DNA of 64,000 nt from a virus (Duplodnaviria > Caudoviricetes): positions 1 through 64,000 of IMG/VR virus record IMGVR_UViG_2882837327_000005; one strand, written 5' to 3'. The notes below the pieces were generated by a model. It was not told where the DNA came from. It saw nothing but the letters and a program-made list of their open reading frames with translations, and did not search any database. Made by a program: the position numbers and the translations under genes. How positions within the stretch are numbered: position 1 is the stretch's first letter; each line of letters starts with the position of its first letter. Below, one piece after another: positions 9,866 to 20,526 of the stretch.

Positions 9866-10261
9866 ATGCCAGACGGCTCTTTCGACGCGCGGCGGCAGCA
9901 GATGCTGCAGGACATGCACCATGCCGTCCCCGGCGTGACGCTGCATGCCCGCGAGCGGATGCTCGAACGCCACGGCCGGGATCTCACGCGCCTGGAATGG
10001 CTCCATGCAGTGATGTCCATCCTGGACCGCCGCGCGCTGCTGCTGTCCTCCAAGATCCAGTCCAACGGCTGGGCCGAGTGCTGGGCGGTGACGGTGGGCG
10101 CCGTGACCATCCGCATGATGTGGTCCCCGGACCGTGCCCATGTCCTGACCGTGCTGGACGACGAGCACAGCCAGGGCGGCCGGGCCGTGAACATGGCCCT
10201 GGCCTCGCCCCTCAAGATCACCGCGCCCCCGCGCAAGCCCACACACTGGAGCCGCCGATGA
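9866..10261 (+). CDS. DUF4258-like / RelE-fold putative RNase
   Basis: TLHARERMLER and C-terminal VLTV motif; AGGAGG RBS. Confidence 0.5.
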   Translation: MPDGSFDARRQQMLQDMHHAVPGVTLHARERMLERHGRDLTRLEWLHAVMSILDRRALLLSSKIQSNGWAECWAVTVGAVTIRMMWSPDRAHVLTVLDDEHSQGGRAVNMALASPLKITAPPRKPTHWSRR

Positions 10262-15315: not shown

Positions 15316-15759
15316 CTAGGCGCCCACCCCCGTGCTCCCAAACCCGCCGGCGCCGCGCTCGCTGATGGGCAGCCTGTTCGTCTCCACCAGCACCTGCCTC
15401 ACCACCGGTGCCAGCACCGCCTGGGCGATGCGCATGCCGCGCGTCACCTCGAAGGCCTTGGCGCCGGCGTTGAGGAGGATGACCCCCACCTCGCCGCGGT
15501 AATCCTCGTCGATGGTGCCAGGCGCATTCAGCACAGTGACGCCGTGCTTCAGCGCCAGGCCAGAACGCGGCCTGATCTGCCACTCATGGCCCACGGGCAG
15601 CGCCACCGCGAACCCGGTCGGCACCAGCGCGCGGCCGCCGGGCGGGATCACCACCGGCTCCTGCACCGCCGCCATCAGATCCACGCCAGCAGCACCGGAC
15701 GTCGCAGCAGAGGGGAGAGGCAAGCCGTCGCTGTGCGGCAAGCGTTCGATCATGATCAC
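15316..15759 (-). CDS. dut: Trimeric dUTPase
   Basis: [37 protein letters not shown]; start codon uncertain. Confidence 0.95.
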
Positions 15760-15870
15760 GGTCTGTATCCCAGCAGTGGAGCCGCCAGGATACAGGCCTG
15801 GGCGTCGACGGGACAGGCGCGCCGCCCCACTTCTCACCGAGGTGCTATGGTCGCTCGATAACAGACGAGC

Positions 15871-16514: not shown

Positions 16515-17354
16515 ATGCAGACGCCTCCGAAGATGACGCCCGAGGACTGGGAAGCGCTGATCGCGAAGCTGTTCGCGGAGCCCCAGGAAGGCGTGCCCCA
16601 GGCGACCATCAGCTCCCTGGCGCGGGAGTACGGGATCTCGCGCGCGCTCATCCATGGGCAGCTGAAGAAGCGGAACCTCACCTGGTCCATCGACAGGCAG
16701 GCGGCAAAGAAGGCGAGCCTGGATGAGGAGGCGCAGCACCGGGATCGGATAGCCCAGACCCCTGCCCCTCCCCCCCTTCCCGGCTACCGGCCGCCCGAGG
16801 CTATCCGCGCCCAGGGCGACGCGCTGCGTGAGACCCTCCCCGCCTCCCTGCGCCCTATCCTCGACGCGGCAGCCATCCGGCAGGTGGCGCTGGAGCGGCT
16901 GAAGGAGCGGAACGAGCGCATGGCCGGGCTGGCCGAGCGACTGGTGCATCTGGTGCAGGTGGCGCTGACCACCCCAAAGGACGACGACCAGGTGGGGTTG
17001 ACGAAGAAGATGCAGGCCCTGTCCACCCTGCTGCCAGGGAAGAATGACGGCATCCCGGCGATCGTCGCCTCCATCACCTCCCTGACCAACACGCTGCGGA
17101 TCTCGGAGGCCGGCGTGCTGCGCCTCGAGCTCGACGGGCTGAACGACCGCCATAAGTACGAGAGCGAGAGCGGCGCCCTGGATGGGCTCGGGGCCGAGGG
17201 AGACGACATCGACAGCCTCTCCACCGAGGAGAAGGCCCAGCTGCTGGACGCCATCAATATTCTCGAGGGGACAAGCCGCCGTGCCCCTATCCCCATGCCC
17301 CCGCGCCGTGTCATCGACGTGCGCCCCGATGAAGGAGAAGACGATGCTACCTGA
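16515..17354 (+). CDS. Terminase small subunit-like protein
   Basis: N-terminal HTH (TISSLAREYGISRALI..W), C-terminal DIDSLSTEEKAQL; directly upstream of the TerL genes. Confidence 0.65.
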   Translation: MQTPPKMTPEDWEALIAKLFAEPQEGVPQATISSLAREYGISRALIHGQLKKRNLTWSIDRQAAKKASLDEEAQHRDRIAQTPAPPPLPGYRPPEAIRAQGDALRETLPASLRPILDAAAIRQVALERLKERNERMAGLAERLVHLVQVALTTPKDDDQVGLTKKMQALSTLLPGKNDGIPAIVASITSLTNTLRISEAGVLRLELDGLNDRHKYESESGALDGLGAEGDDIDSLSTEEKAQLLDAINILEGTSRRAPIPMPPRRVIDVRPDEGEDDAT

Positions 17355-17958
17355 GCCGCCGGCCAAGGGGTCGCTGCAGCTGTTCGTGCGGGAGGCATGG
17401 CCGCAGGTGGTGGTGGCGCCGCTCGAGTGGGGCAACGTCCTCGAGAGCATGAGCGAGCAGATTGAGCAGGCTCTCCACGAGCCGGGTACGCCCTGCCTTA
17501 TCGCCTGCCCCACGGCGCGCTGTGGAAAGACCATGCTGATGAGCGTTCTGCTGCCGGCGTGGATCTGGACCTGGGCACCGGCCGCACGCCTGATGACCGT
17601 CGGCGTTTCCGAAAGGGCGGCTCATGCGGACGCCCGCCTCACCCGAGAGCTGCTGCGCAGCGTGTGGTACCGCCGGCGCTGGGGTGAGGGCATCGTTCCT
17701 TTCGCGACATCCAACTTGGCCTTCACCGAGAACAGGGCCGGCGGCTATCGCCGAGCGGTTGGTGTCCGGAGCGCCATAAGTGGCCTGCGTGTCGATGTGG
17801 CGATCGCAGATTGCATCTATCCTTTCGCCTACCCGGGCGCCGAGCGAGGGGAAGCGCGCGACCGCGTGGACACCTGGTGGCAGCAAGAAGCCCTGAAGCG
17901 GGTCGTCCCCGGCGGCCACATGCTGCGCGTCGAAGAAAGCATCCTCGCCACCGCATGA
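17344..17958 (+). CDS. Truncated paralogue of the TerL ATPase domain (no nuclease, degenerate Walker B)
   Basis: Collinear with the downstream TerL N-terminus: SLQLFVREAW/SFKAFVKMAW, SVLLPAWIWTW/SVLFVAWVWTW, SVWYRRRWG/SDWYQARWG. Confidence 0.75.
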   Translation: MLPEPPAKGSLQLFVREAWPQVVVAPLEWGNVLESMSEQIEQALHEPGTPCLIACPTARCGKTMLMSVLLPAWIWTWAPAARLMTVGVSERAAHADARLTRELLRSVWYRRRWGEGIVPFATSNLAFTENRAGGYRRAVGVRSAISGLRVDVAIADCIYPFAYPGAERGEARDRVDTWWQQEALKRVVPGGHMLRVEESILATA

Positions 17959-19565
17959 CCCCTCACGGCCTCCCCTCTGCCGTGAATCATGCCCGACTGC
18001 AGCGCTTCCGCAGCCGGACTGCCTCGCCGCGCGTGAAGCTCGAGGCGCAGCTGGGCCAGGAATCCTTCAAGGCCTTCGTGAAGATGGCCTGGAGCGAGGT
18101 GGACCCTGCGGTCCTGTCCTGGAACTGGCACCTGGACCTGATCTGCGACGAGATGGAGAAGGCCGCGCGCCGCGAGGTGCGGGAAATGGTCATCTGCATC
18201 CCGCCGCGCTCCCTGAAGAGCCAGCTCGTCTCCGTGCTGTTCGTGGCCTGGGTGTGGACCTGGCACCCGGCCGCCAAGTTCATCACCGCGTCCTACGAGA
18301 TGAAGCTCGCCACCCGCGACGCGGTGAAGACCCGCCGCCTGGTGAAGAGCGACTGGTATCAGGCCCGCTGGGGCCCCGCCTCGCCGTACCGCGGCAAGCT
18401 CAGCACGGGCGAGGATCACCCGGGCGTCGCGATCGAGGGCGACCAGGACAACAAGACCTATTACGAGACCACGGCCGGCGGGCACCGCTTCTGCGCGACC
18501 CCGGGCGGCCAGGTCACGGGCCACGGCGCCGACTTCATCCTCGGCGACGACATGAACCATGTGAAGAAGGTCGAGCAGGAGGCCGACCGCGAGAAAGTCA
18601 CGTCCTGGTGGCGTGAGGCCATCCCGTCACGCCTGAACGACCAGGCCTATGGCGTGAAGATGGTGATCCAGCAGCGGACCCATGTGAACGACCTGGCCGG
18701 CGAGTGCATCCGCCTGGGCTACCACAAGGTCGTGCTCCCCATGGAGTTCGAGGCCGACCATCCGGATCGGCACCCCTTGGACCCCCGCAAGGTCGATGGG
18801 GAGGTGCTGCACCCAGCGCGCTGGGTGCAGCGCAATGCCCTGTCCCGATACAAGGCCAACCTGGGCGCCTATGCGGTGGCCGGCCAGCTGCAGCAGCGCC
18901 CAGCCCCGCGCGACGGTGGCATCTTCAAGCGCCACTGGTTCCGCATCGAGGCCATGGCCCCGGCCGAGGTGCTGCAGGGCGGCACGGTGCGGCGCTGGGA
19001 TCTCGCGGCCACGGTGCCGAAGTCTGGCACCGACCCCGATTACACCGCCTCGGTGAAGATGGGGCGCGACCAGTTCGGGCGGGTGTACATCCTGCACGCC
19101 AACCGACTGCGGGAGACGCCCTTCAATGTGGATCTCGCCATCCAGGCCATGGCCAGTCAGGACGGGAACAGCTGCCGCCTCATCCTGCCCCAGGATCCAG
19201 GCGCGGCGGGCGTCGCGCGCATGCAGCAGCAGCAGGCCTTCCTGGCGCCCATCGCCACCGAGTTCGAGCGGGAGACCGGCGACAAGGCCGAGCGAGCCCG
19301 CGGCCTGGCCTCGGCCGCCCAGGCGGGCAACGTCATCCTGGTGCGTGGGGAGTGGAACGACGCCTTCCTCGAGGAGCTGTGCACCTTCCCCGCCGCCGCC
19401 CATGACGACTGGCTGGACGCGGCGGCCGGCGCCTACAGCGCGCTGTTCGGGGGCGCGGACAACATCCTGCAGGCCTATGCCCAGATGCTGCGCGAGGCCC
19501 AGGGCACGGACAGCCATGATCCTGGGTCGGAGCATGTGTCGCAGGGGGTTTATGGGGGCGGGTGA
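17955..19565 (+). CDS. Terminase large subunit
   Basis: IPPRSLKS Walker A, ILGDD Walker B, IQQRTH, WDLA..DYTA, HDDWLDA nuclease motifs. Confidence 0.95.
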   Translation: MTPHGLPSAVNHARLQRFRSRTASPRVKLEAQLGQESFKAFVKMAWSEVDPAVLSWNWHLDLICDEMEKAARREVREMVICIPPRSLKSQLVSVLFVAWVWTWHPAAKFITASYEMKLATRDAVKTRRLVKSDWYQARWGPASPYRGKLSTGEDHPGVAIEGDQDNKTYYETTAGGHRFCATPGGQVTGHGADFILGDDMNHVKKVEQEADREKVTSWWREAIPSRLNDQAYGVKMVIQQRTHVNDLAGECIRLGYHKVVLPMEFEADHPDRHPLDPRKVDGEVLHPARWVQRNALSRYKANLGAYAVAGQLQQRPAPRDGGIFKRHWFRIEAMAPAEVLQGGTVRRWDLAATVPKSGTDPDYTASVKMGRDQFGRVYILHANRLRETPFNVDLAIQAMASQDGNSCRLILPQDPGAAGVARMQQQQAFLAPIATEFERETGDKAERARGLASAAQAGNVILVRGEWNDAFLEELCTFPAAAHDDWLDAAAGAYSALFGGADNILQAYAQMLREAQGTDSHDPGSEHVSQGVYGGG

Positions 19566-19643: not shown

Positions 19644-19729
19644 GGAAGGTGGCGCTGGGTTGGCTGGCAAGCGGTCTCGAAAACCGTGCCTACCGCAAGG
19701 TTGAGGGTTCGACTCCTTCACCTTCCGCC
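19644..19729 (+). tRNA. tRNA-Ser(CGA), probable 8/4 type
   Basis: GGAAGGTG/CACCTTCC 8-bp acceptor, GCGGT-CTCGAAA-ACCGT anticodon arm, long V arm, TTCGACT loop, G73; encoded 3' end GCC abuts the next tRNA. Confidence 0.85.
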
Positions 19730-19817: not shown

Positions 19818-19891
19818 TGGGGCGTAGCTCAGTGGTAGAGTTCTGGTCTCCAAAACCAGCAGCGCAGGTTCGATTCCTGCCGCCCTAGCCA
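19818..19891 (+). tRNA. tRNA-Trp(CCA)
   Basis: Canonical cloverleaf; CTGGT-CTCCAAA-ACCAG; GCCA end. Confidence 0.92.
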
Positions 19892-20449: not shown

Positions 20450-20526
20450 GGTGCCCTAGCTCAACTGGATAGAGGAGCCCCGTCCTAAGGGGATGGTTCG
20501 GGGTTCAAGTCCCTGGGACACCACCA
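20450..20526 (+). tRNA. tRNA-Arg(CCT)
   Basis: TAGCTCAACTGGATAGAG D arm, CCCC-GTCCTAA-GGGG, GGGG-TTCAAGT-CCCT, ACCA end. Confidence 0.9.

Follow-up and report, generated by a model that had tools for sequence, protein, structure and literature searches.

Short open reading frames which adjoin a full-length gene for the large terminase subunit (TerL) and encode an incomplete TerL ATPase domain have been described as 'truncated large terminase' in Rak2-like jumbo phages (CBB_274) and in the Sinorhizobium phages phiM12 and phiN3 (Buttimer et al. 2017, PMC5259590). These copies fall into the T4 gp17-type family, and whole phage groups share them. Homology to the TerL ATPase domain is also found in vs.8 of phage T4, a stand-alone protein with intact Walker motifs, which is toxic together with EcAvs2 (Evans et al. 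2026, PMC13601566). A further parallel is given by the coupled leader ORFs of phage late operons, in which a downstream gene lacking a Shine-Dalgarno (SD) sequence overlaps the stop codon of the upstream ORF in an ATGA and is reached by termination-reinitiation.

The locus studied here lies in a prophage of Rhodovarius and was analysed within a window of 64,000 nucleotides, i.e., positions 1 to 64,000 of the IMG/VR record IMGVR_UViG_2882837327_000005 (Duplodnaviria; Caudoviricetes). It contains ORF204, which shares with CBB_274 and with the copies of phiM12 and phiN3 the arrangement of a stand-alone TerL-ATPase-like ORF beside a full TerL. Going by the description of those copies, ORF204 is set apart from them: it belongs to a different TerL family, is flanked by a TerS-like gene on one side and TerL on the other, and was found in one genome only. 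From vs.8 it differs in its degenerate motifs and in having no orthologues. Compared with the coupled leader ORFs, the upstream ORF would here be a gene relic and not a dedicated gene, and the coupling is predicted from sequence alone. In our judgement, which is about evenly balanced, ORF204 is a translated leftover fragment of a TerL gene whose frame is kept open by translational coupling. The features of the region are listed in Table 1.

Table 1. Features of the terminase region; positions refer to the window.
Feature	Position	Strand	Description
TerS-like gene (P0003)	16515..17354	+	279 aa, N-terminal HTH
Shine-Dalgarno sequence AAGGAG	17332..17337	+	6 nt before the ATG at 17344, within the acidic tail of TerS
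ORF204 (P0001)	17344..17958	+	truncated, probably catalytically disabled copy of the TerL ATPase domain; counterpart of TerL residues 37-250
Walker A-like motif PTARCGKT	17509..17532	+	Lys62 and Thr63 kept; second P-loop Pro lost
Walker B remnant VAIADC	17797..17814	+	D156 kept; catalytic second carboxylate replaced by Cys157
C-motif remnant MLRVEESI	17920..17943	+	MQRLHExD in the family; Gln replaced by L194, His by E197, Asp by I200
ATGA overlap	17955..17958	+	stop codon TGA of ORF204 shares letters with start codon ATG of TerL
TerL (P0002)	17955..19565	+	536 aa, intact; ATPase and RNaseH-like nuclease domains

According to the sequence and the list of open reading frames, ORF204 extends over 204 aa from its ATG to a TGA at 17956-17958 without interruption. 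Its 5' end overlaps the end of the TerS-like gene (stop at 17354) by 11 nt, and its 3' end is joined to TerL by the ATGA. The upstream gene is provisionally named TerS from its position and because a homologue precedes TerL in G010, a prophage of the same genus (also L004 or L018); its protein is 29% identical to the 287-aa product of that homologue (E 2e-25), and searches against Pfam and PHROG gave no family match. The resident TerL matches Pfam Terminase_6C at residues 348-496 and phrog_38 at E 1.8e-71, is 60% identical to the TerL of G010 and keeps 95% of the near-invariant family columns. In the late operon of the prophage, the TerS-like gene, ORF204 and TerL are followed by three tRNAs and by the portal and head genes. 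Neither a promoter nor a terminator was predicted from TerS to the tRNAs, which is consistent with a single operon.

The three tRNAs (Ser-CGA, 19644-19729; Trp-CCA, 19818-19891; Arg-CCT, 20450-20526) are found between TerL and the portal region, an unusual site for a tRNA cluster. Just upstream of the terminase operon, a dUTPase-like gene on the minus strand (15316-15837) was recognised by eye from its translation. Elsewhere in the host genome a second, distant TerL is encoded in an open frame of 477 aa (G000:C45:16578-16970), which may be part of another prophage or of a GTA-like element.

BLASTP aligned residues 10-181 of ORF204 collinearly with residues 37-221 of TerL (29% identity, E 3e-23), and the family alignment carries this collinearity on to TerL residue 250. 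The PHROG TerL families 4758 and 38 matched ORF204 with an E-value of about 1e-10, and no Pfam model reached the threshold. An exhaustive phmmer search with ORF204 gave 2636 matches at E ≤ 1e-3, nearly all of which were full-length TerLs. An AlphaFold2 model was built from an alignment with 71 family sequences and had a pLDDT of 91, a result driven by the family alignment. Superposed on the ATPase domain of PhiV-1 TerL (8dgc_E), the model reached a Z-score of 18.3 with an rmsd of 2.7 Å over 185 residues, and Z-scores of 14-15 were obtained with the TerLs of P74-26, T4 and HK97. An ASCE/RecA-like TerL fold is predicted on this basis. The model stops near residue 203 of P74-26 TerL in two crystal forms. 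ORF204 ends after the strand of the C-motif, inside the ATPase domain and about 95 residues short of the nuclease domain (near TerL residue 348); the lid subdomain, the linker and the nuclease have no counterpart, and TerL residues 250-536 are unmatched.

For the motif comparison, ORF204 was aligned with 106 TerLs, i.e., 104 full-length phmmer matches, the resident TerL and that of G010. The distance from P56 to K62 in the P-loop is 6 in ORF204 and 5 in 106/106 relatives; this insertion of one residue is unique to ORF204, which thereby departs from the fixed-length Walker A of the family (PPxxxKS). The second Asp of Walker B, present in 98-99% of the family, is Cys157 in ORF204. In front of the C-motif, R186 and R195 are 9 residues apart, compared to 13-20 and mostly 15 among the 104 listed of the 106 relatives, and the strand preceding the C-motif is 4-6 residues shorter than in these listed relatives. 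Lys62-Thr63, G134, R136, G147, D156, R186, R195 and every conserved Trp are retained.

Measured against the N-domains of the phrog_38 and phrog_4758 TerLs (Terminase_6-type), ORF204 is therefore alike in being collinear, 29-38% identical and of the same predicted fold, and in retaining the Lys of Walker A and the first Asp of Walker B, together with the conserved W, G and R positions. It differs in lacking the second Asp and the Gln, His and Asp of the C-motif, in its longer P-loop and in its truncation. ASCE ATPases with such motif changes should not hydrolyse ATP. Because of the motif losses and of this established knowledge, ORF204 is predicted to be inactive: with neither the catalytic carboxylate nor the C-motif, with a longer P-loop and no lid, ATP hydrolysis has probably been lost. 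ATP binding is doubtful given the altered P-loop. In lambda terminase, for example, all changes of the catalytic Glu179 are reported to be lethal (PMC6379665).

Up to this point the original prediction stood. It had described an intact ORF of 204 aa, coupled to both neighbours and encoding a diverged but collinear copy of the TerL N-domain, with CGKT in a Walker A-like position, with VAIADC as Walker B and ending before the nuclease domain. Its proposal that the copy is probably ATPase-dead agrees with the loss of the second Walker B Asp and of the C-motif residues, and the structural superposition on TerL it had suggested gave the modelled match reported above.

Throughout the TerL family considered here, Walker A is short and deviant (PP[RG]xxKS). 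In the resident TerL (residues 83-89, 18210-18230) and in that of G010 it reads PPRSLKS, without a Gly before the Lys, and the GKT of the presumably dead ORF204 looks more canonical than the Walker A of the working TerL. Another degenerate TerL ATPase-like protein is P0113 (311 aa, on a Logan contig of 1.7 kb), in which Walker A is PPGHLTS, the Lys being replaced, and Walker B is VVADT; its N-terminus resembles a twin-arginine signal. The family TerLs P0021, P0029 and P0153 appear to be interrupted at or just after Walker B, probably by inteins.

Orthologues of ORF204 were sought with word-indexed searches, exhaustive phmmer, scans of viral, metagenome and genome contigs and in phage GenBank records, and 61 related and 301 family genomes were covered in addition. 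In all these collections, none was found except ORF204 itself. Among 1.84 billion representative proteins searched with phmmer, only ORF204 itself had an E-value below 1e-30; the next-best match was 37% identical (E 1.8e-17), and the closest relatives reached at most 37-38% identity. The 90% cluster of ORF204 comprises one member on one contig. The only moderately close prophage found was G010, in which TerS is joined directly to TerL by an ATGA overlap, with neither ORF204 nor any other gene between them. A second match to the TerL N-domain was sought in 22 other TerL loci and not found; two matches were present only in the window. Orthologues in related phages, as known for the conserved truncated or dead TerL paralogues, are thus missing for ORF204 in the one close relative available and in the 22 loci. 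Synteny in relatives had been named in the original prediction as a check, and absence from close relatives as one half of what would speak against a maintained gene; the absence was observed.

Short phmmer matches of about 190-330 aa were considered as a possible family of short paralogues. They were rejected, as they were mostly fragments, or TerLs interrupted by inteins or frameshifts, with normal motifs and on contigs of 1-10 kb. The ESM Atlas contains clusters of viral proteins of about 190-240 aa, with Terminase_6N in 23-35%.

Fold, motifs and distribution bear on the idea that ORF204 might be a decoy which shields TerL from terminase sensors (Avs1-3, Upx) or from satellite hijacking, as had been suggested when the ORF was first noticed. 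Its modelled TerL ATPase fold would suit this role, the best structural match 8dgc_E being the PhiV-1 TerL chain of an Avs3 complex, and co-expression with TerL would be expected. However, the isolated TerL ATPase domain and vs.8 activate EcAvs2, and the ATPase domain alone activates Upx, instead of blocking these systems (PMC13601566). Since binding drives Avs oligomerisation, a TerL look-alike is more likely to be a trigger than a shield. Furthermore, Avs3 reads active-site residues and bound ATP according to the introduction of the same publication, whereas the active site of ORF204 is changed and its ATP binding doubtful. Conservation across phages is also lacking among the 1.84e9 representatives. 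The idea is weakened by these results, and a shielding function is regarded as very improbable.

Constraint on the protein was assessed at the conserved positions of the family. ORF204 keeps 27/44 family-conserved residues, i.e., 17 are lost. At columns conserved to ≥ 90%, it keeps 77%, while the family median is 100% and the 5th percentile 91%; in its loss of conserved residues ORF204 hence falls below the 5th percentile of the phrog_38 and phrog_4758 TerLs. At columns conserved to 70-90%, 48% are kept compared to a family median of 83%. At variable columns ORF204 is ordinary for the family, and TerLs which are as diverged as ORF204 or more so at these columns still keep 86-100% of the near-invariant ones. 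For comparison with neutral evolution, the DNA of TerL or of the TerL of G010 was mutated randomly, with only stop codons forbidden, until 27/44 conserved residues were left. About 100-136 substitutions were required. The replacements at conserved columns had a mean BLOSUM62 score of -0.94 in ORF204 and of -0.90 to -0.94 in the simulations (P about 0.55). Hydrophobic positions were retained at 0.88 in ORF204 compared to 0.79 ± 0.06 simulated (P 0.07-0.13). The GC content at the three codon positions (0.68/0.54/0.80) is inside the range of the real genes of this phage and is not decisive.

There is, therefore, no significant sign of purifying selection on the ORF204 protein since it left the role of a TerL. 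Weak selection on the fold is possible in view of the hydrophobic retention and of the surviving Trp, Lys, Gly and Arg residues. The original prediction of a copy that is 'maintained rather than decaying' is not supported at the protein level, where ORF204 is a singleton, has lost conserved residues far beyond the range of the family and shows neutral-like replacements; only the reading frame appears to be preserved.

These results also bear on the possibility that ORF204 is a maintained pseudo-ATPase accessory, which mimics the TerL N-domain, binds nucleotide without hydrolysing it, associates with TerS, TerL or the portal and tunes terminase assembly or the initiation of packaging. This reading, which we consider possible but tentative, would account for an intact ORF with a strong SD inside the terminase operon, for the retention of Lys and Thr in Walker A, of the first Asp in Walker B and of conserved Gly, Arg and Trp residues, for a hydrophobic retention slightly above the neutral expectation and for the confident TerL-like model. 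It has precedents in the truncated TerL beside terL (PMC5259590) and in T4 vs.8 (PMC13601566). As dead TerL-ATPase paralogues beside terL recur and are conserved in Rak2-like phages (PMC5259590), the prior for a function of ORF204 is raised.

On the other hand, no orthologue exists in the collections searched, the nearest relative G010 has no such gene, the 17 losses among 44 conserved residues are as radical as under neutrality, and two indels, one in the P-loop and one preceding the C-motif, are unique to it. The protein is moreover cut within the ATPase domain and has no lid, and surface of the core should be exposed. Judging from ring ATPases in general, an inactive copy that could enter the TerL ring should poison packaging. 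A more specific version, in which ORF204 would be a working pseudo-ATPase particular to this lineage, co-translated with both terminase proteins and influencing packaging or immune detection through binding to TerS, to TerL or to a terminase sensor of the host, is judged unlikely. If true, the recurrent 'dead terminase-ATPase beside terL' would have arisen independently in a second TerL family. If the protein works, the locus would provide a small tractable system for the function of such copies, including a natural relative which lacks the gene.

The frame itself might be open by chance, ORF204 being an irrelevant or untranslated pseudogene in GC-rich DNA. The GC content is 67%, long spurious ORFs are common in the window, and the loss of conserved sites is neutral-like. 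Under the neutral point substitution required, considered alone, ORF204 stayed free of stop codons in 0.06-0.30 of the trials, which is compatible with chance. Substitutions are accompanied by indels, in bacteria roughly one per ten substitutions; several indels are thus expected in ORF204, given about 100 substitutions. Nevertheless, the homology to TerL stays in one frame from end to end. In the conserved segments only two length changes were observed, both in-frame (one residue gained in the P-loop; 4 to 6 residues lost before the C-motif), although several frameshifts should have arisen. ORF204 is also preceded by a perfect AAGGAG at ideal spacing, and both ends of ORF204 precisely overlap the neighbouring genes. 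For these reasons, a frame open by chance is considered improbable.

The initiation signals differ between the genes. The calculated energy of the duplex with the anti-SD sequence is -8.8 kcal/mol for ORF204, -0.6 kcal/mol for TerL and -2.5 kcal/mol for TerL of G010; by these values, ORF204 has a strong predicted SD and TerL has none. In both phages the start codon of TerL overlaps the stop codon of the upstream gene in an ATGA, the partners being ORF204 and TerL here and TerS and TerL in G010. The overlap between ORF204 and TerL has, judged by its sequence, the geometry of termination-reinitiation coupling. A frameshift fusion of ORF204 and TerL was considered separately and rejected: although TerL is read in the -1 frame relative to ORF204, the overlap shows no slippery heptamer, and TerL has a homologous N-terminus of its own.

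The simplest reading of these observations would be selection on uninterrupted translation up to the start of TerL, and not on the protein sequence of ORF204. In the explanation by a translated leftover fragment, ORF204 would be the remaining 5' part of a large-terminase gene, comprising the first two thirds of the ATPase domain, which came to lie between TerS and the working TerL in one Rhodovarius prophage lineage. It would probably still be translated from its own strong ribosome-binding site, and TerL would be translated at the ATGA overlap by ribosomes which have just finished ORF204. The lack of a separate ribosome-binding site for TerL would be what keeps the frame open. Should ORF204 be such a relic, it would cleanly illustrate how phage mosaicism leaves gene stumps and how a useless frame can stay open under selection for nothing but translational coupling. 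It would also be a caution against equating an 'intact ORF' with a 'maintained protein'.

The split between the relic and the resident TerL would be ancient. Where ORF204 and TerL have the same residue, the codon coincides in 26 cases, compared to 22.3 expected from codon usage; as codon matches do not exceed the expectation from usage, the synonymous sites are saturated. In the loop between W108 and G134, ORF204 has the typical length of the family, and the insertions of 16 residues in TerL and of 51 residues in the TerL of G010 are absent. The terminal branch of ORF204 measures 1.19-1.27 substitutions per site, compared to 0.17 for TerL and a median of 0.67. The placement of ORF204 in the tree is tentative: it joins the long branch of P0059 (79% support), near the clade of TerL and its G010 counterpart (60-62% support). 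Saturation, loop length and the long branch show that ORF204 is not a recent copy of the neighbouring TerL. Nucleotide similarity between the two genes is confined to 30 nt at 80% identity, and a recent tandem duplication of TerL was ruled out by the saturated synonymous sites, the lack of the loop insertion common to TerL and its G010 counterpart and the shortness of this similarity. The loop insertion of 51 residues in the TerL of G010 (L004, 1363-3084) is itself of low complexity and rich in P, A, G, Q and S.

From these data we infer that ORF204 is either an old partial duplicate or a stump of the TerL of another phage, which would have been displaced and left behind by recombination at the border between TerS and TerL. 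Identity to G010 is 29% for TerS, 35-38% for ORF204 and 60% for TerL. This step would fit a mosaic joint and could also be due to faster evolution of TerS. The gene located 3' of TerL in G010 (L018, 3134-3313) is homologous to a gene at 9896-10075 of the window (52% identity over 60 aa), which precedes TerS by about 8 kb; both prophages are mosaic, and their gene orders differ.
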